Source: a virus (taxonomy: Duplodnaviria > Heunggongvirae > Uroviricota > Caudoviricetes). Taken from it: a DNA stretch of 31,393 nucleotides. The position numbers were made by a program, and so were the translations under genes. Positions 1 to 20,741 of this stretch are shown here, piece by piece; position 1 is the stretch's first letter, and every line of letters starts with the position of its first letter. Under the pieces are notes generated by a model, which was not told the origin of the DNA, ran no database searches, and saw nothing but the letters and a program-made list of their open reading frames with translations. The DNA lies in IMG/VR virus record IMGVR_UViG_2778261541_000008, positions 1-31,393 of that record; one strand, 5' to 3'.

Positions 1-1958
<1,958 letters not shown>

Positions 1959-1962
<4 letters not shown>

Positions 1963-3141: not shown

Positions 3142-3212
3142 CTGACGACTCCAAACAAATGCCCATTGAAGGGCGATGGCTGAATGGTACCGAAAATACG
3201 ACATAAAAAACA

Positions 3213-3229
3213 ATATTTATTAGAGCAAT
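3213..3229 (-). promoter_or_regulatory. P1 C1-repressor-type operator (16/17 match to ATTGCTCTAATAAATTT on the minus strand)
   Basis: Plus strand reads atatttattagagcaat, the reverse complement of the 17-bp asymmetric C1 operator consensus as I recall it, with one mismatch. It sits in the divergent intergenic region directly upstream of the minus-strand operon. Confidence 0.6.
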
Positions 3230-3310
3230 TTTACAATAAGTAAACGCCATGTAGACCACAAACAACCTGAGTTAAAATAACGAAAATCAGAGCAAATAAT
3301 TGGTGATGAC

Positions 3311-3514
3311 GTGGCAAGTATTGCAACAAAAGACAGCATTTGTTCGGGGCACGGAGGATTCCCATCCAGGCCTCCTGTAGAGAGTGAACCACTACTTAAA
3401 GTCAACGGAGTCGAAGTGTTAGTTGATGGTAAGCAATATGCACAATACCGATGGAAACAGTACGCACGGTGGGCAAGCTATATCAACCAGGGCATGGTTT
3501 ACCGTCAATGGTAA
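3311..3514 (+). CDS. Hypothetical small protein (67 aa)
   Basis: ORF with a GTG start in the intergenic region downstream of the operator; no recognisable motifs. Weak call, kept because the locus otherwise has a gene-count gap relative to P1 (upfC position). Confidence 0.3.
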   Translation: MASIATKDSICSGHGGFPSRPPVESEPLLKVNGVEVLVDGKQYAQYRWKQYARWASYINQGMVYRQW

Positions 3515-3601
3515 AGGGATCGTATGCGTTGGTGACCCTGTTTCATGCGGATCTACCGTAGCGTCCGGAGACGGCCTGGTTCAGGTAAGTTAGGAGATAT
3601 C

Positions 3602-4390
3602 ATGCTGGAAAAAGACTACCAGTTATCCGCATATAAAAAATTGGCCGCCGCCGGTGGGATGAAAACACCTGGTGCCATAACATCGGCACGAAACAGTGCT
3701 AACACAGCAAAACTGCTTGCAGAAGAATTGACCGGATTAATTCTGGATACAATTGTCTATCCCGACACTATTACCAGTTATGTTTCAACGATCAGAACAA
3801 CTACAACCGGCTTAACGAACATTGGAGAACTGGCAACTAAGCACGCGGACCTGTTGGCTGGTTATGCAGATCTGTCAATGCTGCTTCAACTCGATATTGG
3901 TTGGGATGTTTACTGCCGTGCTAATGAGCGAGAAGTTTCAGAACTGCCGATCTCTATTGCCATTGGTGATGTGAATATTACTAAATCGCTTGAGGACGCT
4001 GTTAACGCGCTTAATACATCAAGTTTAGTCGCTGCTATGGGGGAGATTAACCAGACCCTTAACACTGGCTCAGGAAGCTCGTCAGGCTCTGGTTCAGGCG
4101 GCGGCACTGCCACTCCCCCACCAACACTAACAGAAGAGCAAATTGAATCTCTGAAAGTAGCAACTGAACAGTTTGGGGTTGTTTTCAACCAGACAACAGC
4201 GCCCACAACTGCGTTACAACAGCAGTATGAACGAGCGAATGAAAGCGCCAACGTAGCCATAACTGCTTATAACCATGCTATCGGTACCGCGCTTGCGGAA
4301 GCATCAGCAAATAAGGCCAGCACAGCCAGCGCAGTTGCCGCTTTGGTTCCTGATTCTGTTCTTGATGAATTAAACAAAGCGGCACAGTAA
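3602..4390 (+). CDS. Hypothetical protein with a Ser/Gly/Thr/Pro-rich linker
   Basis: ORF 3545..4390; start placed at ATG 3602 (MLEKDYQ...) preceded by AGGAG. Contains the low-complexity stretch TGSGSSSGSGSGGGTATPPP. No catalytic motif recognised. Confidence 0.6.
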   Translation: MLEKDYQLSAYKKLAAAGGMKTPGAITSARNSANTAKLLAEELTGLILDTIVYPDTITSYVSTIRTTTTGLTNIGELATKHADLLAGYADLSMLLQLDIGWDVYCRANEREVSELPISIAIGDVNITKSLEDAVNALNTSSLVAAMGEINQTLNTGSGSSSGSGSGGGTATPPPTLTEEQIESLKVATEQFGVVFNQTTAPTTALQQQYERANESANVAITAYNHAIGTALAEASANKASTASAVAALVPDSVLDELNKAAQ

Positions 4391-4429
4391 CAAAGGACTT
4401 CATTGATAATTTTTCTTCAGGAGGAAGAC

Positions 4430-4630
4430 ATGTCATTCTTTTCTACGTTAAAAACAGCTTTGTCTTTGAAGGAGAAACTTGCTGCTACTGGTGTTCTTGT
4501 TCTGATTTGCGCACTTGTTGGTGCTGGGTTTGTATGGGAACGTCATCAGCTAAAGCAAGCCATGGAGAAAATTGGCAGTCTTGATCAGGCTGTTAAGGAA
4601 CGTGATAAGTCAATAATGGATCTTAACTAG
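4430..4630 (+). CDS. Small membrane-anchored protein (N-terminal TM helix plus short charged helix); possible i-spanin N-terminal fragment
   Basis: ATG at 4430 preceded by AGGAGG. Hydrophobic segment LAATGVLVLICALVGAGFVW followed by ERHQLKQAMEKIGSLDQAVKERDK. Ends at a TAG that is in frame with the downstream ORF 4643..4852. Confidence 0.55.
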   Translation: MSFFSTLKTALSLKEKLAATGVLVLICALVGAGFVWERHQLKQAMEKIGSLDQAVKERDKSIMDLN

Positions 4631-4685
4631 GCCATTGAGACGATGAACAAAGCAGAGCAACATTTTCACAGCCAGGAAGTGAAAA

Positions 4686-5018
4686 ATGAATCAGAACAAG
4701 CCAAGTATGCTGACAGGCAAATGGAACGAAAAGCTGAAGTTCAGAAACAACTGGTTGCGGCGGGTAATGTTCGCCAGCGTATTCCTGCTGACACTCAGCG
4801 GTTGCTCCGGGAGTCGATCAGCGAATTTAACGCCGACGCCGACAAAGGTTAACCACCCTGCCCCCAAAAGTGCATTTATGTGCAGGATGCCAGAATTTAG
4901 CAGTGAATATTTTGATGATCTGCCAGCCTATATCCTTGATACAGAAACGATGCTGAAGGGGATTAACAGGAAGAATCGCAACGTTAATGATTACAACCGC
5001 GCTATCAGCGGTAACTAA
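4686..5018 (+). CDS. Lipoprotein (lipobox LTLSGC, Pro/Thr-rich mature N-terminus); position of P1 mlp
   Basis: ATG 4686 preceded by AGGAAG. Signal-like segment RRVMFASVFLLTLSG-C, then SGSRSANLTPTPTKVNHPAP. Reading frame is +1 relative to ORF 4643..4852, which it overlaps. Confidence 0.6.
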   Translation: MNQNKPSMLTGKWNEKLKFRNNWLRRVMFASVFLLTLSGCSGSRSANLTPTPTKVNHPAPKSAFMCRMPEFSSEYFDDLPAYILDTETMLKGINRKNRNVNDYNRAISGN

Positions 5019-5029
5019 AAGGGATTTTT

Positions 5030-5422
5030 ATGTCTGATAAAGTAACAGTAAAGCAAACTATCAACAAAGCGACTTCAATCTACAAAATTGAGCACATCAC
5101 TGTTGGCAAGCCAGGATCTGAACAATACCGTCGTGCTTTCGAGCTTGCCGATCAGCTTGGTTTAAAACACCCGGATTGCATTGAGCATGTATTTCCGACC
5201 TATGCTGATGAGCAATGTACTCATGTTCTTACCGAAGAGGATTTTTTCAGCACTGAAGAACGAGAAGGCGTTGATCGCTGTATTGGTGTGATTTGCTCTT
5301 CAGTGAGTTATGAGTTATTCCCTAATGTCCATGAAGATGGTGGTATTGGATACCAATTCCTGTACGAAGGCGATGAGCTTAAATGTTATGAACATGGTCT
5401 TCTCATCGAAAGCATAGAATAA
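5030..5422 (+). CDS. Hypothetical protein (130 aa), last gene before the replicon
   Basis: Clean ORF with an ATG start, followed immediately by an intrinsic terminator. No domain recognised. Confidence 0.55.
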   Translation: MSDKVTVKQTINKATSIYKIEHITVGKPGSEQYRRAFELADQLGLKHPDCIEHVFPTYADEQCTHVLTEEDFFSTEEREGVDRCIGVICSSVSYELFPNVHEDGGIGYQFLYEGDELKCYEHGLLIESIE

Positions 5423-5436
5423 TACAGCTTCCTTCC

Positions 5437-5461
5437 AACCGGCTTTGTTGGCCGGTTTTTC
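5437..5461 (+). terminator. Rho-independent terminator
   Basis: Stem aaccggc / gccggtt with loop tttgttg, followed by a T-run, directly after the stop of the 5030..5422 gene. Confidence 0.65.
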
Positions 5462-5463
5462 AC

Positions 5464-5481
5464 TTATCCACATTATCCACT
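5464..5481. promoter_or_regulatory. Tandem DnaA boxes of the plasmid origin (oriR-like)
   Basis: ttatccaca followed by ttatccact, both matching the DnaA box TTATNCACA, at the outer edge of the origin as in P1 oriR. Confidence 0.7.
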
Positions 5482-5484
5482 GGA

Positions 5485-5541
5485 TAGATCCAATAATTAG
5501 GTCCATATAGATCCCAATTAGATCCATATAGATCCCTGATC
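5485..5541. promoter_or_regulatory. Origin GATC cluster (five Dam sites in repeated tagatcc heptamers)
   Basis: GATC at 5487, 5510, 5521, 5531 and 5538 within an AT-rich stretch between the DnaA boxes and the iterons. This matches the Dam-methylation-dependent part of P1 oriR. Confidence 0.65.
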
Positions 5542-5580
5542 GTTGCAGGCCGCGCCACGTCTGGCCTAGAAGTGTATCGC

Positions 5581-5684
5581 GATGTGTGCTGGCGGGAAAA
5601 CGATGTGTGCTGGCGGGATAAAAATGTGTGCTGACGGGTTGCTAATGTGTGCTGGCGGGATATAGGATGTGTGCTGACGGGAAA
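5581..5684 (+). repeat. incC-type iterons: five direct 19-bp repeats at ~21-bp spacing (RepA binding sites, origin)
   Basis: gatgtgtgctggcgggaaa, gatgtgtgctggcgggata, aatgtgtgctgacgggttg, aatgtgtgctggcgggata, gatgtgtgctgacgggaaa; all in the same orientation, directly upstream of repA. Confidence 0.9.
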
Positions 5685-5740
5685 GCCTGGGTAGTTATCA
5701 TCACTTATAAAAACTATCTACATAATTCGGAAAAAGTAAT

Positions 5741-6601
5741 ATGAATCAATCATTTATCTCCGATATTCTTTACGCAGACATTGAAAGTAAGGCAAAAGAA
5801 CTAACAGTTAATTCAAACAACACTGTGCAGCCTGTAGCGTTGATGCGCTTGGGGGTATTCGTGCCGAAGCCATCAAAGAGCAAAGGAGAAAGTAAAGAGA
5901 TTGATGCCACCAAAGCGTTTTCCCAGCTGGAGATAGCTAAAGCCGAGGGTTACGATGATATTAAAATCACCGGTCCTCGACTCGATATGGATACTGATTT
6001 CAAAACGTGGATCGGTGTCATCTACGCGTTCAGCAAATACGGCTTGTCCTCAAACACCATCCAGTTATCGTTTCAGGAATTCGCTAAAGCCTGTGGTTTC
6101 CCCTCAAAACGTCTGGATGCGAAACTGCGTTTAACCATTCATGAATCACTTGGACGCTTACGTAACAAGGGTATCGCTTTTAAGCGCGGAAAAGATGCTA
6201 AAGGCGGCTATCAGACTGGTCTGCTAAAGGTCGGTCGTTTTGATGCTGACCTTGATCTGATAGAGCTGGAGGCTGATTCGAAGCTGTGGGAGCTGTTCCA
6301 GCTTGATTATCGCGTTCTGTTGCAACACCACGCCTTGCGTGCCCTTCCGAAGAAAGAAGCTGCACAAGCCATTTACACTTTCATCGAAAGCCTTCCGCAG
6401 AATCCGTTGCCGCTATCTTTCGCCCGAATCCGTGAGCGCCTGGCTTTGCAGTCAGCTGTTGGCGAGCAAAACCGTATCATTAAGAAAGCGATAGAACAGC
6501 TTAAAACAATCGGCTATCTCGACTGTTCAATTGAGAAGAAAGGCCGGGAAAGTTTTGTAATCGTCCATTCTCGCAATCCAAAGCTGAAACTCCCAGAATA
6601 A
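5741..6601 (+). CDS. repA: Plasmid replication initiator RepA (P1 type, iteron-binding)
   Basis: 286-aa ORF flanked upstream by five iterons and downstream by nine, the diagnostic P1 R-replicon arrangement; the length equals P1 RepA as I recall it. Confidence 0.85.
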   Translation: MNQSFISDILYADIESKAKELTVNSNNTVQPVALMRLGVFVPKPSKSKGESKEIDATKAFSQLEIAKAEGYDDIKITGPRLDMDTDFKTWIGVIYAFSKYGLSSNTIQLSFQEFAKACGFPSKRLDAKLRLTIHESLGRLRNKGIAFKRGKDAKGGYQTGLLKVGRFDADLDLIELEADSKLWELFQLDYRVLLQHHALRALPKKEAAQAIYTFIESLPQNPLPLSFARIRERLALQSAVGEQNRIIKKAIEQLKTIGYLDCSIEKKGRESFVIVHSRNPKLKLPE

Positions 6602-6886
6602 GTGTGTGCTGGAGGGAAGCTGCATTAAAAAAATGTGTGCTGCCGGGAAGGCTTGTCCAATTTCCTGTTTTTGATGTGCGCTGGAGGGGGACGCCCCGCA
6701 GTTTGCCCAGACTTTCCCTCCAGCACACATCTGTCCATCCGTTTTTCCCTCCAGTGCACATGTAATTCTCTGCCTTTCCCTCCAGCACACATATTTGATA
6801 CCAGCGATCCCTCCACAGCACATAATTCAATGCGACTTCCCTCTCTCGCACATTCTGGTCCTGCATCATCCCTCCAGCACACATCT
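6602..6886. repeat. incA-type iteron array: nine copies, three forward and six reverse (copy-number control locus)
   Basis: Forward: gtgtgtgctggagggaag, aatgtgtgctgccgggaag, gatgtgcgctggaggggg. Reverse: six copies of tccctccagcacacat-like sequence, one of them degenerate (cctctctcgcacat). Begins at the repA stop codon. Confidence 0.85.
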
Positions 6887-6908
6887 AATAGCCTCATCGC
6901 CATTTCTT

Positions 6909-6970
6909 TACGTGCAATAATTGACGCACGAATCAAAAAAAGTTGCACGTAGCAGAATCAAACGTACAAT
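6909..6970 (+). promoter_or_regulatory. par operon promoter/operator: 9-bp inverted repeat (tacgtgcaa ... ttgcacgta) overlapping a TTGCAC-16-TACAAT promoter
   Basis: Inverted repeat arms at 6909-6917 and 6943-6951; -35-like TTGCAC at 6943 and -10-like TACAAT at 6965, about 30 nt upstream of the parA ribosome binding site. Confidence 0.45.
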
Positions 6971-7000
6971 TCACTCATACGAAATGATAAGGAGATGATG

Positions 7001-8206
7001 ATGAAACGCGATTACGGCGGTGTCGGCACCATAGCTCTTCGTGCAAGCGCATTACTTAAGGCCATGAGTCAGGATATTGAAGATCAGCGCAAAGAGTTCA
7101 ATCAGACCGAGTATTATCAGACGTTCACTCGTAACGCTGTGGCAAAGTTGCCGAAGCTGAGCCGCCGCATTGTGGAGCAGGCCATCAAAGAGATGGAAGA
7201 TGATGGGTACCAGTTCAACAAGAAACAGGTCGGTAACGTTGAACAGTACGCGCTGACCATCCAGAACGTCATTGATATCTATGCCCACCGTAAGATCCCC
7301 AAATATCGCGACATTCACAAATCGCCTTACGTTATTTTTGTCGTAAACCTGAAGGGTGGCGTATCCAAAACGGTTTCCACAGTCACGTTGGCGCACGCTC
7401 TGCGTGTGCATCAGGATTTACTGCGTCACGATCTGCGCATTCTGGTAATTGACCTTGACCCTCAGGCATCCAGCACAATGTTCCTCGACCATACTCACAG
7501 TATTGGTTCCATCCTGGAAACCGCCGCGCAGGCGATGCTGAACGACCTGGACGCGGAGACGCTACGCAAAGAGGTGATTCGTCCGACCATCGTTCCTGGC
7601 GTAGACGTGATTCCAGCCTCTATCGACGATGGCTTTGTTGCCAGCCAATGGAAAGAGCTGGTTGAAGAGCATCTTCCCGGACAAAATCAGTACGAAATCC
7701 TTCGACGCAATATCATTGATCGTGTTGCGGATGATTATGACTTTATCTTTATTGATACCGGTCCACACCTGGATCCGTTCCTGCTCAACGGTCTGGCGGC
7801 CAGCGATTTGCTGCTTACCCCTACCCCACCAGCCCAGGTTGACTTCCACTCAACACTGAAATATCTCACCCGTCTGCCAGAAATGCTGGAGCAACTGGAG
7901 GAGGAAGGCGTAGAACCGCGTTTGAGCGCCAGCATTGGTTTTATGTCGAAGATGACCGGCAAGCGCGATCACGAGACATCACACAGCCTTGCGCGTGAGG
8001 TTTACGCCAGCAACATTCTGGACTCTTCTCTGCCTCGTCTGGATGGCTTTGAGCGATGCGGCGAGTCTTTCGACACCGTAATCAGTGCCAACCCGCAATC
8101 GTATCCAGGCAGTGCAGAGGCGCTGAAGAAGGCACGAACCGAGGCCGAGCGTTTCACTAAGGCTGTGTTTGATCGAATTGAGTTTGTTAGGGGTGAGGCG
8201 GCATGA
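7001..8206 (+). CDS. parA: Partition ATPase ParA (type Ia, P1-like, with N-terminal DNA-binding extension)
   Basis: Walker A-type VVNLKGGVSKTVSTVTLAHAL; C-terminal FLPRLDGFERCGESFDTVISANP...AVFDRIEF closely matches P1 ParA as recalled. Start placed at the third ATG (7001) for spacing from AAGGAG; the ORF opens at 6995. Confidence 0.9.
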   Translation: MKRDYGGVGTIALRASALLKAMSQDIEDQRKEFNQTEYYQTFTRNAVAKLPKLSRRIVEQAIKEMEDDGYQFNKKQVGNVEQYALTIQNVIDIYAHRKIPKYRDIHKSPYVIFVVNLKGGVSKTVSTVTLAHALRVHQDLLRHDLRILVIDLDPQASSTMFLDHTHSIGSILETAAQAMLNDLDAETLRKEVIRPTIVPGVDVIPASIDDGFVASQWKELVEEHLPGQNQYEILRRNIIDRVADDYDFIFIDTGPHLDPFLLNGLAASDLLLTPTPPAQVDFHSTLKYLTRLPEMLEQLEEEGVEPRLSASIGFMSKMTGKRDHETSHSLAREVYASNILDSSLPRLDGFERCGESFDTVISANPQSYPGSAEALKKARTEAERFTKAVFDRIEFVRGEAA

Positions 8207-9168
8207 AAAAAATAGTTTCCCGTGGACGAGTGCTGGGCAAGAATAGCTCCGAGTTTGCTCGCATGCTTGAAGGCAGTGAAGGCACCAAAACCTTTACCCT
8301 AAAATCTGGCCGCCAGGCTAAATTCTTGCTTACCGTCGTGCTGAGTGGTGAGATTGAGTCGCGCACGTTCGTTGACCCGGCAGTTAACGGCCGCGATCAG
8401 TCTCTGCTCACCCCTGAGTCGGTAAGCGATATTTCCCGCACCATTAAATTGCAACAGTTCTTCCCGGCTATCGGTCGTATGGTTGGGGAGCGCATTGAGG
8501 TATTGGACGGATCGCGTCGCCGTGCTGCGTGTATCTTCAATGAAACGAAATTTGAGATTCTGGTGACGAAAGATGAGATCAGCCTGGCGGATGCCCGCCA
8601 GCTGGCCATTGATATCCAGACAGCCCGCGAACACACTCTGCGCGAGCTGGGTAAACGCTTCGAGGTTATGTACGGTAAGAATATGACCAAAGAAGAGATC
8701 GCCCGAGCTGAGAACATCTCAAAGGCTAAAGTGACGCGAGCTTTCCAGGCTGCCGCGGTGCCGGATGAGATGATTGCTGTCTTCCCCGTAGCCAGCGAGC
8801 TCGCCCTTCCAGATTACCAGTTACTGCTCCAGATCGCCGAGGATGCTAACGCTAAAAGCGTGCCGATTGAAGAGCTGGTTGATACGGTGCGCGAACGAAT
8901 TGCAGAGACTGAGGGCGCGAAAGAGGATAAAGCGAAGATACTGGCTATCTTCAAAGCGGAAAGCAAAAGCCTGAAGCCCGCGCCGGTTAAATCTGTGGTG
9001 GTTGAGAAGCTGCGAGACTTCTCTGACCGTCGCCAATATGCCCGAAAGAAGTCCGATCCGAAAAAACGGGTTGTCGCCTACGAGTTCTCCAGACTCCCGT
9101 CTGAAGTGCAAACTGAAATTGACGAAGCAATAAAAAAAATCATTGGGAAAATGTCTGCTGGGGAATAA
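8203..9168 (+). CDS. parB: Partition centromere-binding protein ParB
   Basis: 321-aa ORF translationally coupled to parA (ATGA overlap); size and position match P1 ParB, and a parS-like site lies directly downstream. Confidence 0.8.
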   Translation: MKKIVSRGRVLGKNSSEFARMLEGSEGTKTFTLKSGRQAKFLLTVVLSGEIESRTFVDPAVNGRDQSLLTPESVSDISRTIKLQQFFPAIGRMVGERIEVLDGSRRRAACIFNETKFEILVTKDEISLADARQLAIDIQTAREHTLRELGKRFEVMYGKNMTKEEIARAENISKAKVTRAFQAAAVPDEMIAVFPVASELALPDYQLLLQIAEDANAKSVPIEELVDTVRERIAETEGAKEDKAKILAIFKAESKSLKPAPVKSVVVEKLRDFSDRRQYARKKSDPKKRVVAYEFSRLPSEVQTEIDEAIKKIIGKMSAGE

Positions 9169-9214
9169 TCCCGCTGGTGGGAGGCGGCTTTAGCCCCCTC
9201 CCCTGTCTAAAATG

Positions 9215-9296
9215 TCCCGCGTCTATTTCATGTATAAATATATGATATATATAGATATTCATGAAAAATTTCAGACTGAAATTCCCACGGTTTCAC
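9215..9296. other. parS-like partition centromere: heptamer A-boxes and hexamer B-like boxes flanking an AT-rich putative IHF site
   Basis: Left arm tcccgcgtctatttcat; AT-rich core tgtataaatatatgatatatatagatattcatg; right arm tgaaattcccacggtttcac. Same layout as P1 parS right arm (TGAAATCGCCACGATTTCAC as recalled) but with TCCCAC/TCCCGC in place of the TCGCCA B-box. Confidence 0.55.
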
Positions 9297-9355
9297 GCCT
9301 GTTTTACTTGCCCCCCTCCCCCGCACAAAAAATTTAAAAAATTACTTTTAGCGAG

Positions 9356-9385
9356 AAAGTCAACAAGTGACTTTCAATAAAATCT
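9356..9385 (+). promoter_or_regulatory. Candidate late promoter: inverted repeat aaagtca-acaag-tgacttt followed by a TAAAAT -10-like hexamer
   Basis: Perfect 7-bp-arm palindrome about 15-20 bp upstream of a TANNNT hexamer, ~50 bp before the head gene. This resembles the recalled architecture of P1 Lpa-dependent late promoters (inverted repeat near -22 plus -10). Confidence 0.35.
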
Positions 9386-9413
9386 CTTCCGAAAAGGGAT
9401 TCACACAAGTGCC

Positions 9414-11141: not shown

Positions 11142-11167
11142 TCAGGGGAAGTTCTCCGTTTAACATA

Positions 11168-11186
11168 GCGCCCCCGTGCGGGGCGC
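11168..11186 (+). terminator. GC-rich stem-loop after the head gene (partial terminator or mRNA stabiliser)
   Basis: gcgcccc-cgtgc-ggggcgc, a 7-bp G/C stem with no clear U-tract, 27 nt after the head-gene stop. Confidence 0.35.
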
Positions 11187-11201
11187 ATAACAGGGAAAGT
11201 T

Positions 11202-12674: not shown

Positions 12675-12683
12675 GGGAATACA

Positions 12684-13499
12684 ATGAGCAAAAACTTTTT
12701 TCAATCCGGGGCATTTTTGGGGAATGGACTGTCCCGTTTCGCTTTGAACTCTGATCCTGTGCAGCTGATGGAGTCTGCCCGAGCAAGCGCCGAACCGCCA
12801 ACAGATCCGGTTATTAATAATAATCCGGAACCGGCGGCACAGACTAACGATAACGTTCCATCTGATCCGGCTCCTGAGCAAATCCTGGAAGAGAAAGACG
12901 GTAAAGAATGGACCGTTGAACAGGCGCACCAGATGATTCTGGAAGCTGCAAATCGAAGTGCGATGCAGAATGCGTTGAGTGATGCGGCCGACGCCGTTTT
13001 CGCCTGGGCTGATAGCGGTGATCTGACTTTCGACTCCCTTGATGGTTTCGTTCAGGCTATCGCTGGTATCTCTGATGACGACGACTCCGAAGTTACAGAA
13101 GAACAGGACGATGCCTATAACGAAGCATGGGCAAATGTTGCTGACTTCCTCGCAGCATGCGGTGTAGATGATGACATGATCGAAGCACTGGCTGACGATG
13201 AAGACGACGACGCTGCTGCTGATGTTGGTGCCTCTATCGCTGGTTTAGATAGCGACGACCGCGACGAACTGGAAGCGGCGTTTGTTGTTGCTGGCACTTC
13301 TGATGAAATGCTGACTGAAGCATTTAAGAAGGTTGTTCGTAACGGTGAGATCAAACTCATCCGTAAACGCCTGCGGAAAAAACGTCTGACTGCGGCTCAA
13401 AAATCGGCGCTGAAAAAAGCGCGTCGAAAAGCCCAGACCGGCGCGGCAAAACTTGCCCGCAAAAAGTCAATGAAACTGCGCCGTAAGCGCCTTGGCTAA
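12684..13499 (+). CDS. Highly acidic protein with a ~50-aa polybasic C-terminal tail (P1 gene 21 position)
   Basis: Asp/Glu-rich body (DDDDSEVTEEQDD, ADDEDDDAAAD) ending in KLIRKRLRKKRLTAAQKSALKKARRKAQTGAAKLARKKSMKLRRKRLG; AAGGGA RBS. Confidence 0.6.
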   Translation: MSKNFFQSGAFLGNGLSRFALNSDPVQLMESARASAEPPTDPVINNNPEPAAQTNDNVPSDPAPEQILEEKDGKEWTVEQAHQMILEAANRSAMQNALSDAADAVFAWADSGDLTFDSLDGFVQAIAGISDDDDSEVTEEQDDAYNEAWANVADFLAACGVDDDMIEALADDEDDDAAADVGASIAGLDSDDRDELEAAFVVAGTSDEMLTEAFKKVVRNGEIKLIRKRLRKKRLTAAQKSALKKARRKAQTGAAKLARKKSMKLRRKRLG

Positions 13500-13534
13500 A
13501 GGAGGAGGCCGGAGAACTCCGGCCTTTAACTTGA

Positions 13535-14116
13535 ATGGCACCTATACCTTATGGGGTTTACAGCCAGGCTGATGGTGTATCGCCATTTCTGAAAGTTACT
13601 TTAACGAACTCTCAGTACCAGGTTACCGGATATATCAGCCAGGGGGCAGCAATGAACATGGCCCAGAATTGGGAAGCGCCGTTTACCGGTATGTCCATGG
13701 GGTCTGTTGCTGGTGCTTTCAGTGGTTTTGCGCAGGTTGGTACTGAAACAACGTCGGTGGCCCGTTGGAACAGCTTAATGGTTTGGGAGGGGGGAACACC
13801 GCCGACTTTCACGCTGCCAGTAACTTTCATCGCTTTGTTTGACCCATTCACGGAGGTTTCAGGAGCTATCGCCGCATTGTCAGCGATGATTAGCCCGGAA
13901 CTTAAAGATGCCAGTATTGGTGGTCGAATCCCGGAGCGTGTGACGCTAAACATTGGTCGCCGGATCAACATCATTGATGTCGCTATCCAGGACATAAGTT
14001 TCGATCTCGATGCACCCAGGGACAGCAATGGGCATTTCCTGAAAAACACCGTCAACCTCCAGTTGACCGGTTCTTCGATATATAACAGCTCCGATATTGT
14101 TCGGGCGTTCCAGTAA
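13535..14116 (+). CDS. Hypothetical tail or morphogenesis protein
   Basis: 193-aa ORF between the acidic protein gene and the tube gene; weak RBS, and a hairpin (13507-13524) lies just upstream. Confidence 0.5.
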   Translation: MAPIPYGVYSQADGVSPFLKVTLTNSQYQVTGYISQGAAMNMAQNWEAPFTGMSMGSVAGAFSGFAQVGTETTSVARWNSLMVWEGGTPPTFTLPVTFIALFDPFTEVSGAIAALSAMISPELKDASIGGRIPERVTLNIGRRINIIDVAIQDISFDLDAPRDSNGHFLKNTVNLQLTGSSIYNSSDIVRAFQ

Positions 14117-14127
14117 AAGGATTTTAT

Positions 14128-14637
14128 ATGGGGCACAATAACACTAAGGGAAACCGTAAATTTATTAAGGGCCGCTATACTGCCAACGCGGCCAAAGGCG
14201 AACGACTGGTATCTTCTGAATTCCAGCTCACTTTTGCAGGCCATGAAGATATCAGCGTACTGGTTCGCACGTCGCAAATTCCTGAAATGACCCGCGAGGA
14301 TGTGGAGGACTATGGTCCGAATGGTGTGAAGTTCAACCAGCACGGTCCAATTCGAAACTCTGGGGAAATCCAGGTCCAGTGCGTGGAGACTATCGAAGGC
14401 GATATTCTTCAGTTCATTAAAGATCGCATTGCGGCGAAGGACTATGTTGATATCACGATGGCTGCGACCCCTGAATCCAAATCTTCCGGGGTTAACGCTG
14501 TGACAAAAGCTGCTACAACAATTGAAATGTTGGACTGCAAAATCTACAGTGATGCAATCGACTTTAGTACCGAAGATGTGACTGCCGCTGTGCGCCCGTC
14601 ACTTCGTATCGTTTACAACTGGATTGAGTGGGATTAA
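14128..14637 (+). CDS. Putative tail tube protein (T4 gp19-like)
   Basis: 169 aa; C-terminal pattern ...RPSLRIVYNWIEWD resembles the C-terminus of myovirus tube proteins (T4 gp19 ends ...TLALDYWE as recalled); followed by a strong terminator. Confidence 0.45.
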   Translation: MGHNNTKGNRKFIKGRYTANAAKGERLVSSEFQLTFAGHEDISVLVRTSQIPEMTREDVEDYGPNGVKFNQHGPIRNSGEIQVQCVETIEGDILQFIKDRIAAKDYVDITMAATPESKSSGVNAVTKAATTIEMLDCKIYSDAIDFSTEDVTAAVRPSLRIVYNWIEWD

Positions 14638-14656
14638 GAGTCATCCCTTGTATTTT

Positions 14657-14680
14657 AAAGCTCCTTCGGGAGCTTTTTTG
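14657..14680 (+). terminator. Rho-independent terminator ending the late head-tail operon
   Basis: aagctcc-ttcg-ggagctt followed by TTTTTT, 20 nt after the tube gene stop. Confidence 0.8.
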
Positions 14681-14720
14681 TGCTTAAATTATGCCGGTAT
14701 AGATAGATTTTGAGCATGTT

Positions 14721-15017
14721 ATGGAAATTGATTTTTCATACTCTCCTGAGACGATAGAAAGAAGATTCGAAATAATTGGATGCATAACTATTTCAGATGA
14801 GCATTATTGGGTTCTCTATGATGCCAATACATGGTTATGTGCCTTAGCAGAATGTCAGCCATCGTTATGTGTAGGGGAGGGGGCTTTTCGACATAAGGTG
14901 CTGGCTACACTTGAAGTGAACACGTTACGATATTGGTGTGTAGAAATACTTAGTGATAACAAAGAATTGCATTTATTATTGCTGAATAAGTGTGCTTCTC
15001 TGCGCAGAAAAGCATGA
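14721..15017 (+). CDS. Hypothetical small Cys-containing protein inside the AT-rich island
   Basis: 98-aa ORF convergent with the two-gene minus-strand operon; weak RBS; low GC. Confidence 0.3.
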   Translation: MEIDFSYSPETIERRFEIIGCITISDEHYWVLYDANTWLCALAECQPSLCVGEGAFRHKVLATLEVNTLRYWCVEILSDNKELHLLLLNKCASLRRKA

Positions 15018-15144
15018 GAAAACCCAACCGCTCTCCAGGAATTATCAGAAGAATATATGCGGAAAGTTATAGCTAGCTATTGAAAAGCTAAAGTAGATCG
15101 GTTAGATTTGCCTTACTCATCTACCATGTGTAGAAAGAGCGATC

Positions 15145-15186
15145 GAACCCGATACATAGCAATATGTGTCGGGTTCAGCTTTTTTA
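15145..15186. terminator. Bidirectional intrinsic terminator between convergent genes
   Basis: Long hairpin gaacccgatacata-gcaa-tatgtgtcgggttc followed by TTTTTT on the plus strand and a U-rich run on the minus strand; overlaps the stop of the 15184..15648 gene. Confidence 0.55.
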
Positions 15187-15648
15187 TGTCCCAAGTGCTC
15201 TTTTTCTGCTTTGTTTGAGTGTTCTGATTTTACTGTCATAGGTTACAACATAGGCTGTTTTGAGAAGCCAATAGTCTCTACGTGCGGATAGCACAACAAC
15301 GTAGTTTTCACACTCATTCCAGATTACCCACTCTTCAGTTGGTCCTCGTCTTTCAGACCAACATGATATATCGCAATGGTTATAATTCCTTATCATATGC
15401 GCGATCCAGCGAATTCGCTTGCACCGTTCAAGATCGGGTATACGTTCTTCTTCTTTTTTTCCCTCTGATACTAAATGCCAAAATCCGAACTCTTTCCCAT
15501 CATATTCCGGTGAATAACGTAATCGAACAGGGAGACCCTTAAACGTTATATTAGAGATTAAAATGTCTTCTCTGACAACATCATATACATCGTCTATATA
15601 CTCTTGCCAACTTCCATTGAAGTACAATAAATCTGGCATTTGAAGCAT
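15184..15648 (-). CDS. Hypothetical protein, second gene of an AT-rich two-gene operon (possible HEPN-like Rx5H motif)
   Basis: ORF 15184..15663; start placed at the ATG at 15648, which overlaps the upstream stop (TGATG). Contains CKRIRWIAHMIRN. GC roughly 30-38%, against about 50% in flanking genes. Confidence 0.5.
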   Translation of the reverse strand: MLQMPDLLYFNGSWQEYIDDVYDVVREDILISNITFKGLPVRLRYSPEYDGKEFGFWHLVSEGKKEEERIPDLERCKRIRWIAHMIRNYNHCDISCWSERRGPTEEWVIWNECENYVVVLSARRDYWLLKTAYVVTYDSKIRTLKQSRKRALGT

Positions 15649-16352
15649 CAGCGAGCCTCCCACACGAAAATATTAAATTTACTTTCTGTTGGAAGAGTGC
15701 TTTTTAGTAACTCCCTGTTTGTATGTGATTTTATCCTGTTTATGACTTGGATTTTTCCCGCGTTGCTATTCATTCCTCGATGAACGTAGCCTAACGCACC
15801 AATGAAAAGATCCGTTAGCTGCAATTGTTGCACTTCATGAGATCGTATATGTTGAATTCTGTTTATCGACTCATGATTGTAATCATAGCGATCATTGTGA
15901 AGAACCCCTCTTAATTTCTCAATTTTTTCAATACCTAAAGTATCTTTTATATCTAGGTAGATATTGTATGTGTTGTTACTTTCTATTATGTTTTTTAAGA
16001 CATAAAAAAACATCTTATAATAGAAAGTATTATGATCTTGATGGAATCGAGCATGGTCCAGTTGCTCTTTATCAGGAACAACAACACCTCTAAAGCGCAA
16101 TGCTGGGTTGCTGAAGAAGTAATCTACGACATCTAAGTAAAATTCAACTTTGGACGCAGATACTTTAGTCCACTTGATTTCGAAATCAGGTTTTAGATTG
16201 TGTTTTAATTTTAATTCCTTGATGTCTCTAGCAATTTTTTTTGTGATAGAGCCAGGACACCAAAGTGCACCCAATACCATGACTTTATTATGATCATTTA
16301 GTAGGTGACAGGATTCATCGCAGAATACATTAAATGTTCTTCGGTTCAACAT
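15648..16352 (-). CDS. Hypothetical protein with N-terminal FCDESCH motif (DUF3800-like?), first gene of the AT-rich operon
   Basis: 234-aa ORF with GGAG-5-ATG; N-terminal NVFCDESCHLL resembles the conserved D-E-S motif I associate with DUF3800-type proteins; very AT-rich coding sequence; own upstream intergenic region of ~170 bp. Confidence 0.55.
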   Translation of the reverse strand: MLNRRTFNVFCDESCHLLNDHNKVMVLGALWCPGSITKKIARDIKELKLKHNLKPDFEIKWTKVSASKVEFYLDVVDYFFSNPALRFRGVVVPDKEQLDHARFHQDHNTFYYKMFFYVLKNIIESNNTYNIYLDIKDTLGIEKIEKLRGVLHNDRYDYNHESINRIQHIRSHEVQQLQLTDLFIGALGYVHRGMNSNAGKIQVINRIKSHTNRELLKSTLPTESKFNIFVWEAR

Positions 16353-16520
16353 GTTAACTCCACTTATTGTTAGGTAGAATTGTCCGTTAGTTGTTTATTA
16401 ATTGCAATAAAGGGACGTCCAGATTTGACAACTATGTCCTCTTACCAGGACACCTATGAGTTTGCCTCATGGCAAACTAGAGGTGTTGAAAGTATGCATG
16501 GTTATAATTAGAGCAATTCA

Positions 16521-17366
16521 TTACCCTCTGAATCCTGCCGGTATACCCCATTGTTCGTTATCTTTATTTTTGGCTAAAACCGCATTAAGAGCTTCGTTTA
16601 CCGTCATGCAATGCGGCAGATTATCGAAGTTTGATACCCCGCCAATATCAGGAGAACGCTTGTTCTTCAGGTAAGCATATTTCCGCGCTGCCGCCTCTAC
16701 CTTCTGCTTGAACTCATGTTTTTGAGCGCGTTTTTTGGATAACCGCAGATTGTCAGCCTTTGCTTTTGCCTCAGCGATCCATGAAGTCAATTTTTTGAGT
16801 CTGGTCGTTCCGGCACCGCCGGAAACTGATCTTTTTGTTTTTTTAACTTGTGACTTCTTATTCTTTATTGCCACGTCATCCTGACAGGGGGAGGGGGTAT
16901 CATTTTGACATGGGGGTGTGGATAAAAAATTAAATAAAGCCAATGTCTTAGCGAGAACAGCTTTAACCTTGGTTGCCGCTGAAGAGATCTTTAATTTGCT
17001 TTCAATCAGCGAATTTTTGGCTTGTTGTGCGAAGGCCAAAAAGGATGGTGTAAACCGGTACAGGTTAGCGCGACGTTCACGGTGATCGCCGATAACAATC
17101 TCTACAGACAGAATTCCTTTGTTTACAGCTTCACGGAATGCACGAACGACGGTTGATTGGCTATAACCAGTTTCTGCCGCGATCAGGCGGTGAGGCTTGT
17201 GAATGAAGTATTCACTGGTTGTTGCCGCGAGATTTGCACATTGCGACAGGATATGCCCGGCGCTACGGGATAGACCGGAGTGTGTTACAACGCAGGCCAA
17301 TTCATAGCCAGAAAAAGTAAAATCGCTCATCGTTATACAGCTCAGGAAAGTGACTTTAGCCAGCAT
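16521..17366 (-). CDS. repL: Lytic replication initiator RepL
   Basis: 281 aa, equal to P1 RepL as recalled; lies immediately downstream of kilA in the same operon under a C1 operator; N-terminal HTH-like region, C-terminal basic region. Confidence 0.7.
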   Translation of the reverse strand: MLAKVTFLSCITMSDFTFSGYELACVVTHSGLSRSAGHILSQCANLAATTSEYFIHKPHRLIAAETGYSQSTVVRAFREAVNKGILSVEIVIGDHRERRANLYRFTPSFLAFAQQAKNSLIESKLKISSAATKVKAVLAKTLALFNFLSTPPCQNDTPSPCQDDVAIKNKKSQVKKTKRSVSGGAGTTRLKKLTSWIAEAKAKADNLRLSKKRAQKHEFKQKVEAAARKYAYLKNKRSPDIGGVSNFDNLPHCMTVNEALNAVLAKNKDNEQWGIPAGFRG

Positions 17367-17377
17367 TACAATGCTGG
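17360..17377 (-). promoter_or_regulatory. Perfect palindrome CCAGCATT-ac-AATGCTGG enclosing the repL start codon
   Basis: 8-bp arms; on the mRNA the repL AUG lies inside the 3' arm, 29 nt after the kilA stop. Confidence 0.4.
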
Positions 17378-17395
17378 TGGTTCTTACTACGTCTG

Positions 17396-18196
17396 TTAGC
17401 GCGTTGCCGCGACAGGTACCAGCACACCAGCATCAAGCAATCGCTTCATCAGCCACTGCTGACCTTTGCCGGTTATACGAGTCGTGAAAGAAATCCTGCT
17501 TCCATTGCTTGTATCGATCACGGTTTCTTTAAGGGTGAAATACCCACGGGATATGTATTCTTGTTTGGGGACGTTCCTGCGTTCACCGGTTGCGATCAGA
17601 ATTCCGTTATCACGCAACCAGGTGAAGAGATAGTTTTGGCCCAGGCCGAGCACTTTGGCATAGTTGCCGATTAGAACCCCGCTGGCGGTAGCAACGCGTT
17701 CGGCGAATTCGACTTTAGGTGCATCCATCAGCATTTTTTGCTCCAGCCGTTGCTTTTGCTCTGCCAGGTCAGCAGCCAAACGGAGAGCTTCTGGGTGGCT
17801 CTTCGGAATAGCAGGTTGTAATCTTCCGGCTCGATAGTCGATAAATGTCTGGTTTACCTTCAGCCGAAACGCGGGAGAAATCCAGCCTGCGTACTCCACT
17901 GCGAGCAATTCATGGGCAAAAGTGCCGCCGCCACGGCCTTCGAACGAAACTATGCAATTCTGCATAGTTTCTTTTTCAAGCTCTTCGATGAGCTGTTTGG
18001 CTGACAGCGTTCTTAGCCATTGAGCTGGCGCTTTATGGGCACCGAGTCCGCTCGCTCTGTGTAGAGCATTAAGGTTGTAACGGCCAGCGCGGTCGGTCGT
18101 AATTTCAACACCACAAATAACAGGCAGAGTGGTTGAAGGATCGACATTTTGATGAAGGTTTGATATATTCATATCCGCATTGAATGTTTGTTGCAT
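17396..18196 (-). CDS. kilA: KilA (KilA-N domain protein with KilA-C/antirepressor-type C-terminal domain)
   Basis: 266 aa, equal to P1 KilA as recalled; GGAG-4-ATG start. The C-terminal 130 aa are clearly homologous to the C-terminus of the adjacent Ant (PEALRLAADLAEQK..., GKGQQWL...LLDAG). Confidence 0.7.
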   Translation of the reverse strand: MQQTFNADMNISNLHQNVDPSTTLPVICGVEITTDRAGRYNLNALHRASGLGAHKAPAQWLRTLSAKQLIEELEKETMQNCIVSFEGRGGGTFAHELLAVEYAGWISPAFRLKVNQTFIDYRAGRLQPAIPKSHPEALRLAADLAEQKQRLEQKMLMDAPKVEFAERVATASGVLIGNYAKVLGLGQNYLFTWLRDNGILIATGERRNVPKQEYISRGYFTLKETVIDTSNGSRISFTTRITGKGQQWLMKRLLDAGVLVPVAATR

Positions 18197-18265
18197 TTTT
18201 TCTCCAAATTTGCATCAACCTTCAATCACCAGCTCGAAATGGTGATTCTTTGCACTTAGAAAACG

Positions 18266-18282
18266 AAATTTATTAGAGCAAA
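18266..18282 (-). promoter_or_regulatory. C1-type operator upstream of kilA-repL (Op53 equivalent)
   Basis: aaatttattagagcaaa, 16/17 to the reverse complement of ATTGCTCTAATAAATTT, about 70 bp upstream of the kilA start. Confidence 0.65.
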
Positions 18283-18325
18283 TTTTTCTGACTCGATCCA
18301 GATCGGGTTGGACGATCTGCTCAGA

Positions 18326-18358
18326 AACCTGCCAGTTTGCTGGCAGGTTTTTTTCTTT
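18326..18358. terminator. Intrinsic terminator between ant and kilA
   Basis: aacctgccag-tttg-ctggcaggtt followed by TTTTTTTCTTTT on the plus strand; A-run on the other side, so it may act in both directions. Confidence 0.6.
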
Positions 18359-18360
18359 TG

Positions 18361-19398
18361 TTAACCTATTGCTACTGGTTTTAACAAACCAGCATCAAGT
18401 AGCTTGCGAGTTAACCACTGCTGGCCTTTACCCGTTAATTGGGGCGTCAGCCGTATCTGGTAGCCATTTTCATCATCCAGCACCACTTCTTTCACTGTGA
18501 AATACCCGGCGTTAATGTACTGCTGGCGCGGTACGTTTTTGCGCGCACCAAAAGCCATGAGAATGCCGTTCTGGCGCAACCATGAGAAAAGGGCGTTTTG
18601 CTTAAGTCCAACAACCTTTGCAAAGTTCCCGATCAGGATTCCATTAGCCACTGATACCCGGTCGGCAAAATCGACTTTAGGGGCAGCGGCCACCAGCTGT
18701 TGTTCCAGCTGCATTTTCTGTTCTGCCAACTCGGCAGCCAGGCGTAGAGCTTCTGGTAATGTTTGGGGGATCGATGGGGTAGGGGAGTTTGCCTGCTGCA
18801 ATTCTTCCAGTTTGTCGATCAGCGAACGGCGGACCGCTTTTGACTCGCGCGCGGCGACTCGCAGGGCTTGTTTGAAAGTCATGGTTATGACAAGCATTGA
18901 TGTTTTGTTCATTTTTTCCACTACACTTTTTGTGTAGTGCTCACCATCAAGCTCATCGAGTATTTTTCCGATGAATTTGTTGTTCCGAACCTCTGGTTCC
19001 CCACATAACTTACGCGCTTCATTGACCATCTTTAACAGTGTCAGGCTGTCGATTGTGTCTCCGGTGTTGGGGATGATATTCACGGCTGGTGCTGGCGTAG
19101 CTGACGTAACAGGTGCTGTTTTTTCAACATTCAAATTATTACCGGTCATTCTATGTGCCTCCTTTCTCATTTCTGCTGCCACTGTTGCGTAACGTAGACG
19201 TCCTTGTTCAATCAAATAATCCCTGATCTTGGCTATCAGTAGCTTGTTGATCACAGCCTTATCTGTTCGGGTATAAAAACGTCTGGTTATCATGAAGTAG
19301 TTGGCAATTGCGCCGGGGATCTCCCGTGTCGGCATACAGATTGTATGCAAGGCGATCGCTTCGGCTATTTCATTACGGGTGACGAGAGGTGTTTTCAT
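18361..19398 (-). CDS. ant: Antirepressor Ant (immunity-I region)
   Basis: 345 aa; ATGA overlap with the upstream 73-aa icd-like ORF; shares the C-terminal KilA-C/ANT domain with KilA; position between icd/c4 and kilA as in P1. Confidence 0.75.
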   Translation of the reverse strand: MKTPLVTRNEIAEAIALHTICMPTREIPGAIANYFMITRRFYTRTDKAVINKLLIAKIRDYLIEQGRLRYATVAAEMRKEAHRMTGNNLNVEKTAPVTSATPAPAVNIIPNTGDTIDSLTLLKMVNEARKLCGEPEVRNNKFIGKILDELDGEHYTKSVVEKMNKTSMLVITMTFKQALRVAARESKAVRRSLIDKLEELQQANSPTPSIPQTLPEALRLAAELAEQKMQLEQQLVAAAPKVDFADRVSVANGILIGNFAKVVGLKQNALFSWLRQNGILMAFGARKNVPRQQYINAGYFTVKEVVLDDENGYQIRLTPQLTGKGQQWLTRKLLDAGLLKPVAIG

Positions 19399-19616
19399 AA
19401 ACCCCCCTGAACGTCGGCAGAGAAGGGGAGGCTCCAGTAACTAAGTGAATTGCGCGAGTTAGTTGAAAAACGGGCTGTAAAAATGCAGGGGCCATCAGGC
19501 AATTGAGAGCGTGCTTCGTCTTCTGTTGCTGCGATAACGAAGTGATAGTGGTGTTTTTTACAGGAATAGAAACGCCAGATGAATTCTTGGCGTGCGCAAG
19601 GATTGGCATTAACCAT
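19395..19616 (-). CDS. icd: Icd-like small protein translationally coupled to ant
   Basis: 73 aa, equal to P1 Icd as recalled; GAGG RBS embedded in a sequence complementary to the upstream c4-like element. Confidence 0.55.
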   Translation of the reverse strand: MVNANPCARQEFIWRFYSCKKHHYHFVIAATEDEARSQLPDGPCIFTARFSTNSRNSLSYWSLPFSADVQGGL

Positions 19617-19669
19617 AGTTACGGCCTCACAATCAGGTTTAACAACCTGCTACCCGCTGTCAAACAGGT

Positions 19670-19760
19670 GGCAGGACGTGACAGGGTTGACAGACTGGCG
19701 ATTGTGAAACCAGCAGGCCGAAGCCTCCCCATCACGCCCCACCATAATTTGGGCGTAACG
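19670..19760 (-). ncRNA. c4: c4-like antisense repressor RNA (approximate boundaries)
   Basis: On the minus-strand transcript, GGCCU and CACAAUC (plus-strand 19700-19719) are separated by 7 nt and are exactly complementary to the contiguous GAUUGUG-AGGCC that covers the icd RBS (plus-strand 19621-19637). Ends not determinable by eye. Confidence 0.4.
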
Positions 19761-19930
19761 CGGTTTAACGGACACAAAAATACCGCAATATCGGAAATCT
19801 GCGGTTGTCCGCACAATCATTCAGGCTGTCAAACCTGGTCGTAGAATTTGCTACGACGGCGGAACTATAAGCCTGAACGATTAAAAGGTCAATATGATGC
19901 GAAAAGATAGCATTCGCGACTTAAAAATAC

Positions 19931-19947
19931 AAATTTATTAGAGCATT
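19931..19947 (-). promoter_or_regulatory. C1-type operator at the immunity-I promoter (Op51 equivalent)
   Basis: aaatttattagagcatt, 16/17 to the reverse complement of the operator consensus, in the divergent region between c4/icd/ant and the secreted-protein genes. Confidence 0.65.
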
Positions 19948-20042
19948 GTTTGTTTAATAAATACACAATTGGATCTAATAACCTCTTTTTTTAAAGGCGA
20001 AAATATGTACCCTAAATGGGTTATAAGGCAGGTGAGGTTATA

Positions 20043-20690: not shown

Positions 20691-20741
20691 ATATATGGTG
20701 GTTAACTAATTAAAATATTAATATCCAAAGGAGATAAATTA

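Follow-up and report, generated by a model that had tools for sequence, protein, structure and literature searches.

The window, by which we mean the whole 31,393-nt stretch of DNA that was analysed, is ∼97–98% identical to phages P1 and P7, and represents a segment of a P1/P7-like prophage-plasmid. Its overall GC content is 0.47, and the region around the rlfA and rlfB genes (rlfAB) is AT-rich (GC 0.32–0.42). The features considered here are the following, with operator names as in P1 and former names in parentheses.

1-148, plus strand: 3' end of an IS21-family element (the end of istB; 100% matches to annotated IstB in RefSeq E. coli)
133-1962, minus strand: dmt, C5 and N6-adenine DNA methyltransferase, 3'-truncated at 148/149 (Pfam DNA_methylase and MethyltransfD12)
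1959-2864, minus strand: hrdC, RdgC-family protein (Pfam RdgC, E = 3.7e-98; P1 annotation)
2857-3141, minus strand: uhr, first gene of the Odmt-controlled operon (P1 annotation by identity; ORF list)
3184-3213, minus strand: Pdmt, sigma-70 promoter, -35 TTGTTT at 3208-3213 and -10 TACCAT at 3184-3189 (transferred from P1 annotation, hexamers identical)
3213-3229, minus strand: C1 operator Odmt (Op68), ATTGCTCTAATAAATAT (16/17, 25.3 bits; identical to the annotated P1 operator)
15184-15663, minus strand: rlfB (PADLOC PDC-M04B, E = 1.1e-52; P1 annotation)
15648-16352, minus strand: rlfA, DUF3800 protein (Pfam DUF3800; PADLOC PDC-M04A, E = 7.8e-96; P1 annotation)
16459-16478, strand-neutral: palindrome with 8-bp arms, AGTTTGCC-N4-GGCAAACT, between Orlf and rlfA
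16501-16517, minus strand: weak putative C1 operator Orlf (Op55; Op(rap) in P7), ATTGCTCTAATTATAAC (15.5 bits; P1 and P7 annotation)
16521-17366, minus strand: repL (ORF list, P1 annotation)
17396-18196, minus strand: kilA (ORF list, P1 annotation; Pfam KilA-N and ANT)
18266-18282, minus strand: C1 operator OrepL (Op53), TTTGCTCTAATAAATTT (16/17, 21.7 bits; P1 and P7 annotation)
18361-19398, minus strand: ant1/ant2 (ORF list, P1 annotation; Pfam ANT domain)
19395-19616, minus strand: icd (ORF list, P1 annotation)
19664-19749, minus strand: C4 antisense RNA gene (Rfam RF01695, 68.4 bits; RF03163, 58.2 bits)
19864-19892, minus strand: promoter P1c4 (P51b), TTGACC-17-TATAGT (10/12 promoter match; P1 annotation)
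19931-19947, minus strand: C1 operator Oc4 (Op51), AATGCTCTAATAAATTT (16/17, 25.6 bits; P1 annotation)

The 17-mers of Odmt, OrepL and Oc4 each agree with the C1 operator consensus ATTGCTCTAATAAATTT at 16 of 17 positions, as a sequence-only reading of this DNA had claimed, and the weaker match that it reported at 16501-16517 is also present, with 12 of 17 positions in agreement overall and positions 1–11 perfect. All of the sites lie on the minus strand, as do the operons they serve, which bears out the shared orientation described in that reading, and the window-wide scan that it proposed, using a weight matrix of P1 operators, picks exactly these four. The sites have the traits of the operator class, namely an asymmetric 17 bp matching the consensus and a conserved core at positions 3–11; PMC8546580 states this consensus and its asymmetry, and puts the dispersed C1 operators at 22. 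Each 17-mer is base-for-base the same as an operator in the P1 record (GenBank AF234172 / NC_005856), and occupies the corresponding P1/P7 position beside the same genes. From this agreement in sequence and position, the four sites are with high confidence the C1 repressor operators Odmt/Op68, Orlf/Op55, OrepL/Op53 and Oc4/Op51 of a P1/P7-type prophage-plasmid. The P1 and P7 GenBank records already list these operators with the operons they target, and even the proposed control of rlfAB; since the sites are located where these records annotate them, the observation is right but ordinary. Recovering the C1 regulon of P1 from raw sequence thus serves as a sanity check, and leaves P1 biology unchanged. 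The analysis covered identity to annotated operators, statistical excess, geometry with respect to annotated promoters, and conservation.

The window contains three matches to the consensus with three or fewer mismatches versus 0.17 expected, and none of 100 shuffles reaches three. With a weight matrix trained solely on P1's 16 remaining annotated operators (the four sites being left out), the scores are 25.6 bits for Oc4, 25.3 for Odmt, 21.7 for OrepL and 15.5 for Orlf; the next best match in the window scores 9.1, and no further operators were found above that value. Any match of at least 21.7 bits occurs in 2 of 500 shuffles, and three such matches in none, while 50 of the 500 contain a match of at least 15.5 bits, so that Orlf on its own is marginal and non-significant. 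Exactly four copies of the 9-mer TGCTCTAAT are present, always on the minus strand and always at the sites (0.24 expected), and the 11-mer core occurs twice, versus 0.015 expected.

For conservation, approximately 80 related contigs were compared per locus. The best 80 relatives of each of HrdC, RepL and C1 are at least 93–98% identical, which is too close for deep footprinting, and conservation was therefore judged from intergenic polymorphism and mosaic junctions. By this measure the three strong operators stand out as islands, more conserved than their flanks. Odmt, which abuts the -35 hexamer of Pdmt with a 1-nt overlap, is unchanged in 74 of 79 related loci, with a diversity of 0.010 versus 0.119 in the upstream flank (based on a MAFFT alignment, as ungapped column comparison was distorted by 1-nt indels). 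At the far end of this operon, P1/P7 homology begins at position 149, and the D12 match of Dmt ends at profile position 203 of 253, which is also the end of the protein. Positions 1-148 were identified via RefSeq E. coli annotation, PLSDB annotation having given no identity; the IS21-family insertion disrupts dmt, with loss of the Oban/Op72 context of P1. The sequence-only reading had placed the RdgC homolog and the methyltransferase under direct repressor control and expected their induction upon derepression. The first part agrees with an operator identical to that of P1 at Pdmt, but dmt is truncated here, and induction in this element would yield an incomplete methyltransferase.

OrepL lies upstream of kilA and repL, which form the lytic replicon operon (16521-18196, minus strand), and contains within it the -10 hexamer of PkilA (TCTAAT, 18272-18277; transferred from P1 annotation, hexamers conserved). 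It is unchanged in 77 of 79 loci, and has a diversity of 0.003 versus 0.045 and 0.013 in the flanks, although the embedded hexamer could explain part of this conservation. Oc4 is found in at least eight sequence variants, all with GCTCTAAT invariant, in settings where the upstream flanks are unrelated and the downstream flanks are of three types. According to the transferred P1 annotation, it overlaps P2c4 (formerly P51a), the upstream promoter, at the -35, while P1c4, the stronger-looking of the two immI promoters, is clear of it; the a1/b1 target sites of C4 RNA are at 19818-19870. Since Oc4 covers P2c4 alone and leaves P1c4 free, C1 control of c4-icd-ant would be partial. The idea that all three operons are wired into one immunity regulon is thus in keeping with the identical annotated P1 operators at every unit, but applies to c4-icd-ant only in part.

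We infer C1 binding and repression in the present element from P1 literature and annotation. The c1 gene is outside the window, and in the best 80 P1-like contigs the C1 protein has at least 99% identity with that of P1; four of these contigs also have window-like loci with rlfAB and all of the operators. The GenBank annotation describes Lxc as enhancing C1 binding at all operators. In a lysogen, C1 would occupy each asymmetric 17-bp site with the assistance of the co-repressor Lxc, and bound C1 would block RNA polymerase at the overlapped promoter. In this manner Pdmt (uhr-hrdC-dmt) would be blocked via the operator abutting its -35, PkilA (kilA-repL) via the operator containing its -10, and P2c4, upstream in immI, via the -35 overlap, with the downstream P1c4 left free for the supply of C4 RNA. 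Inactivation of C1 by Coi or Ant would then derepress the early units jointly.

Orlf differs from the strong sites in its geometry. It begins 4 nt past the repL stop codon, ahead of the adjacent genes rlfA and rlfB, which overlap at 15648-15663, and it scores the same as Oc1c, an annotated operator. It is ∼94 bp upstream of the -35 of the predicted promoter PrlfA (P1 annotation), which it neither overlaps nor abuts. The segment 14680-16506 (rlfAB-pmgF) is low in GC and is swapped out in most relatives. RlfA and RlfB, as neighbours matching the PDC-M04A and PDC-M04B profiles, correspond to the candidate system PDC-M04. The label of cargo island given to this region suits its AT-richness, its replacement in most relatives and its defence-candidate match, but the segment is a named part of P1 and P7, rather than a new insertion. 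To our knowledge, no defence phenotype is known for P1 rlfAB; by CRISPRi in P1, neither rlfA nor rlfB was scored as essential (PMC10695390). The 8-bp-arm palindrome noted earlier is confirmed (arms 16459-16466 and 16471-16478). We considered it as a terminator of kilA-repL and rejected this, as it is not followed by a T run and relatives have broken arms (one arm, uncompensated, in two variant lineages). An Rfam search of the palindrome and the rlfA leader for DUF3800-associated RNA motifs returned only noise (E >1).

The most likely role of Orlf is that of a low-affinity operator that damps transcription into rlfA-rlfB, originating from PkilA read-through or a local start, rather than one that occludes PrlfA; its conserved positions 1–11 would belong to the repL side of a mosaic junction. 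The suggestion that the weak site could bring the cargo under repressor control has the P1 and P7 annotators on its side, who assign Orlf to rlfAB/rapAB, and the distance to predicted PrlfA against it.

A less probable reading, though one to be taken seriously, is that Orlf does not regulate rlfAB, and that its core is a conserved element of the lytic-replicon side. It might act as a C1 roadblock or as a looping partner for OrepL, ∼1.75 kb away, which would tighten kilA-repL repression, or might simply be the final stretch of conserved sequence ahead of a recombination junction. The 11-base core is retained after repL in 68 of 69 relatives, whichever cargo follows, whereas the 6-nt stretch that separates it from the stop codon is variable and the 3' half of the site is not conserved; in most RepL loci, homology to the window is lost exactly past operator position 11. 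The separation from PrlfA is also in line with this reading, as are relatives of rlfA that occur in non-P1 contexts without the operator. Besides the P1 and P7 assignments, it has to contend with the presence of only two junction alleles, so that the exact coincidence goes back to essentially a single ancestral event, and with a third repL 3'-end type (L242) without any core. In addition, the common variant among relatives, ATTGCTCTAATCTGGAG, found without rlfAB, scores only 3.2 bits, which makes binding there doubtful.

We think it unlikely that Orlf is a non-functional chance or relic match, with rlfAB driven independently of C1 by their own promoter. An equally good match is present in 10% of shuffles, the 3' half departs from the consensus at five of six bases, one lineage tolerates a core substitution (ATTGTTCTAAT), and a lysogen would be expected to express cargo of the defence type; but the rarity of the exact 11-mer core, the equality of score with Oc1c, the conservation of the core beside variable bases, and the listing of the site in the P1 record under a pre-genomic operator name, Op55, all argue for an operator. 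For the three strong sites, an origin as chance AT-rich matches or plain promoter elements has next to no probability: all three are in AT-rich intergenic DNA, and OrepL includes a -10 hexamer, but neither the matrix nor the mismatch shuffles ever reproduced them, the P1 record has the same 17-mer at ∼20 annotated places in differing promoter registers, and Oc4 persists between unrelated flanks.

Beyond the existing records, the conserved half of the weak operator lies exactly on the boundary of a known cargo hotspot, the cargo matches a candidate defence pair, and dmt is IS-disrupted; these points could inform the regulation or insulation of accessory genes in phage-plasmids. That the junctions fall at the Orlf core and at the 5' edge of Oc4 is a new observation here. 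Behind the retained post-repL core, the cargo may be rlfAB (the defence candidate), a Hok toxin, an Ail/Lom porin or IS elements; Oc4, similarly, persists at the border of the variable sim side. We raise as speculation that in P1-like phage-plasmids the slots for exchangeable cargo are bounded exactly by C1 operator cores, the dispersed operators serving as junction or insulator elements that place new cargo by a repressor site, or providing microhomology through which modules are exchanged. In that case, the defence-candidate module of a minority of elements would be gated by the prophage repressor.

The closest known systems include P1 itself, whose Op68, Op55, Op53 and Op51 have identical 17-mers, strand, genes and promoter hexamers, with flanks that are 97–98% identical. 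The window differs from P1 in that dmt is cut by the IS21-family element, and Oban/Op72 is consequently not adjacent; in the other ORFs on its sim side upstream of Oc4; and in a few SNPs in its spacers and flanks. P7 is heteroimmune to P1 at immI, and the flanks of Oc4 in the window are like those of P1 save for a few SNPs. In the P7 record (AF503408), Op(rep), Op(rap) and the dam promoter/operator have positions and stated roles as in the window. The post-repL operator is stated there to regulate expression of rapA/rapB, the homologues of rlfA/rlfB, and a C1 site and promoter are given ahead of dam, to which the window's dmt aligns in one piece. Among P1-like phage-plasmids, simABC constitutes variable region 4 and rlfA-rlfB-pmgF variable region 5 (PMC9603915; PMC6906374). 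The word "operator" occurs in neither of these papers, and the replacement and low GC of region 5 seen here are as they report. Finally, both RlfA and RlfB match PADLOC PDC-M04, a candidate defence system consisting of a DUF3800 protein and a partner, whereas the P1 annotation describes rlfAB as "possibly associated with lytic replication".

Window positions 3000-20200 align over their full length, in reverse orientation, with a P1 isolate (98.1% identity) and, likewise in reverse orientation, with P7 and the reference P1 genome (97-98%). Sequence matching the window is found on thousands of enterobacterial plasmids, and 47 enterobacterial plasmids cover at least 80% of its first 25 kb. On the basis of these alignments and plasmid matches, the window is a segment of a P1/P7-type prophage-plasmid. 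Its gene order runs from dmt through plasmid replicon and partition genes, head and tail genes, the lytic replicon and immI to further tail genes. Pfam matches HrdC to RdgC, and finds two methyltransferase domains in Dmt, KilA-N and ANT in KilA, and ANT in Ant1.

Reading the minus strand bears out the four sites that a sequence-only reading had assigned to C1, the P1 master repressor. Three are strong and one (Orlf) is weak; their settings, according to the P1 annotation, are as follows.

3213-3229, minus strand: Odmt (former Op68), ATTGCTCTAATAAATAT; abuts the -35 of Pdmt, before uhr-hrdC-dmt
16501-16517, minus strand: Orlf (former Op55), ATTGCTCTAATTATAAC; starts 4 nt past the repL stop codon, before rlfA-rlfB
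18266-18282, minus strand: OrepL (former Op53), TTTGCTCTAATAAATTT; contains the PkilA -10, before kilA-repL
19931-19947, minus strand: Oc4 (former Op51), AATGCTCTAATAAATTT; overlaps the -35 of P2c4 (former P51a), before c4-icd-ant

As had been claimed, Odmt, OrepL and Oc4 each match the 17-bp asymmetric C1 consensus ATTGCTCTAATAAATTT (PMC8546580) at 16 of 17 positions, and a mismatch scan of the window returns these three strong sites only, versus 0.17 expected. The weight-matrix scan proposed earlier as a check also ranks the four sites at the top, with scores of 25.6, 25.3, 21.7 and 15.5 bits against 9.1 bits for the next best position. This matrix was built from 16 of the 20 operators annotated in the P1 record, those orthologous to the window sites being left out to avoid circularity. 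None of 500 shuffles contained three matches as strong as the weakest strong site. Orlf matches the consensus at 12 of 17 positions, with positions 1-11 perfect, and is marginal by score alone, since 15.5 bits was reached in 50 of 500 shuffles; this score equals that of the annotated P1 operator Oc1c, and the exact 11-mer core of Orlf is expected 0.015 times per window. The window holds exactly four copies of the 9-mer TGCTCTAAT, one at each of the four sites and all on the minus strand.

Relatives were collected as the best matches to the HrdC, RepL, RlfA and C1 proteins (about 80 IMG/VR loci per probe). Among the matches listed, 74 of 79 loci carry Odmt unaltered (diversity 0.010, versus 0.119 in the adjoining upstream non-coding DNA) and 77 of 79 carry OrepL unaltered (0.003, versus 0.045 and 0.013 in its flanks). 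The most telling case is Oc4, which has eight or more variants that all preserve GCTCTAAT; upstream they are flanked by at least four unrelated sequences, and downstream (immI) by three different ones. In the related loci L165-L244, conserved immI promoter DNA gives way to the variable sim side at Oc4 positions 1-3 (window 19945-19947), and unrelated upstream sequences adjoin the intact GCTCTAAT core. The c1 gene lies outside the window. On each of the best 80 contigs, C1 shares at least 99% identity with its P1 counterpart, and at least four of these contigs have loci resembling the window, complete with rlfAB and the operators; thus a C1 of P1 specificity can safely be inferred for this element.

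The proposed C1 control of c4-icd-ant would apply to P2c4, the upstream immI promoter and the only one that Oc4 covers; P1c4 (TTGACC-17-TATAGT), further downstream, is not overlapped by the operator. C4 RNA is needed in lysogens, which fits with a P1c4 free of Oc4; Rfam detects both the C4 antisense RNA and the a1/b1 sites that it targets, all of them downstream of Oc4. On the sim side (20016-21218, plus strand), ORFs of 224 and 158 aa stand in place of P1 simABC, and the sole Pfam match is PTPlike_phytase, in the first ORF and just under the cutoff. Opposite the 5' region of kilA, a promoter-like sequence corresponding to the annotated PaskilA (TCGACA-17-TATATT with an upstream TG; 18141-18169, plus strand) is followed about 180 nt downstream by a strong plus-strand terminator hairpin (18323-18352); together these look like an antisense RNA unit.

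Control of the RdgC homolog and the methyltransferase by C1 is supported by the position of Odmt, but the methyltransferase gene itself is truncated. P1/P7 homology begins only at base 149, and positions 1-148 are the 3' (istB) end of an IS21-family element. The dmt frame (133-1962) ends 16 nt inside this element, cutting the Dmt N6-adenine methylase domain at profile position 203 of 253 (Pfam). Judged by this frame, derepression of Odmt would give HrdC and a truncated Dmt. In P1, the bivalent ban operator (Op72ab) overlaps the end of dmt; it is absent from the window because the IS21-family junction truncates that end.

Orlf lies at the edge of variable DNA. Among the matches listed, homology of RepL loci to the window ends at 16507, which is Orlf position 11, in 65 of 80, and picks up again at about 14679 (14670-14679) in loci extending that far. 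The P1-type repL 3' end is kept in 69 of the RepL loci listed: 56 have ATTGCTCTAAT joined to CTGGAG (CTGGGG in one) and then other cargo, while 13 have ATTGCTCTAAT joined to TATAAC and then rlfAB. The common CTGGAG-type site reads ATTGCTCTAATCTGGAG; one of the 13 rlfAB-type loci has a core change (ATTGTTCTAAT), giving ATTGTTCTAATTATAAC. Among relatives, the core is constant and the 6 nt separating it from the repL stop codon vary. On these alignments, the conserved half of Orlf is part of the repL-side DNA at this junction. A perfect TATAAT lies within Orlf (16503-16508, plus strand), directed antisense into repL and without an acceptable -35.

In L165-L244, window 14680-16506 is a replaceable slot between repL and bplB, with alternative cargo that includes a Hok/Gef toxin, IS200/IS605-type (TnpB) and IS4-type transposases, a ParA-like ATPase with a DUF3892 protein, and an Ail/Lom-type outer-membrane protein (porin). 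The low GC noted earlier for the rlfAB region is real, and rlfA-rlfB-pmgF is a published low-GC variable region of P1-like phage-plasmids (PMC9603915, PMC6906374); operators are mentioned in neither paper. RlfA belongs to the DUF3800 family, and rlfA and rlfB (15184-16352, minus strand) match PADLOC PDC-M04A/B (E = 7.8e-96 and 1.1e-52), which makes them a candidate defence pair by profile. With the slot replaced, the region known to vary and a defence-family match, "cargo" is therefore a fair description of this segment. rlfA relatives that are 75-78% or about 43% identical lie in non-P1 phage or island contexts with no operator; one (L016) sits beside what appears by eye to be the 3' end of a tmRNA gene. 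The 8-bp-arm palindrome reported at 16459-16478 is present in the window; no T-run follows it, Rfam gives no match for it, and in two related lineages it is disrupted with no compensating change.

The suggestion that the weak site brings this cargo under C1 finds support in the P7 record, which lists Op(rep) and Op(rap) and notes the latter as regulating rlfA/rlfB homologues. Simple occlusion of PrlfA is not supported, however, because Orlf lies ~94 bp upstream of the predicted promoter. Orlf might plausibly act by blocking read-through from PkilA, by cooperating with OrepL, or through weak binding assisted by the co-repressor Lxc.

For each of the four window sites, the P1 GenBank record annotates an operator of the same sequence, base for base, and the annotated promoter hexamers are unaltered; the P7 record also has a promoter and C1 site ahead of dam. 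With the same sites before the same genes, the single immunity regulon proposed for rdgC-dmt, kilA-repL and c4-icd-ant is therefore the textbook P1 C1 regulon: the observation is confirmed and its interpretation correct, yet the P1 and P7 records already annotate this biology. Mildly new are the two mosaic junctions exactly at operator edges, the match of rlfAB to a candidate defence pair and the interruption of dmt by an IS; by themselves these do not change the picture.
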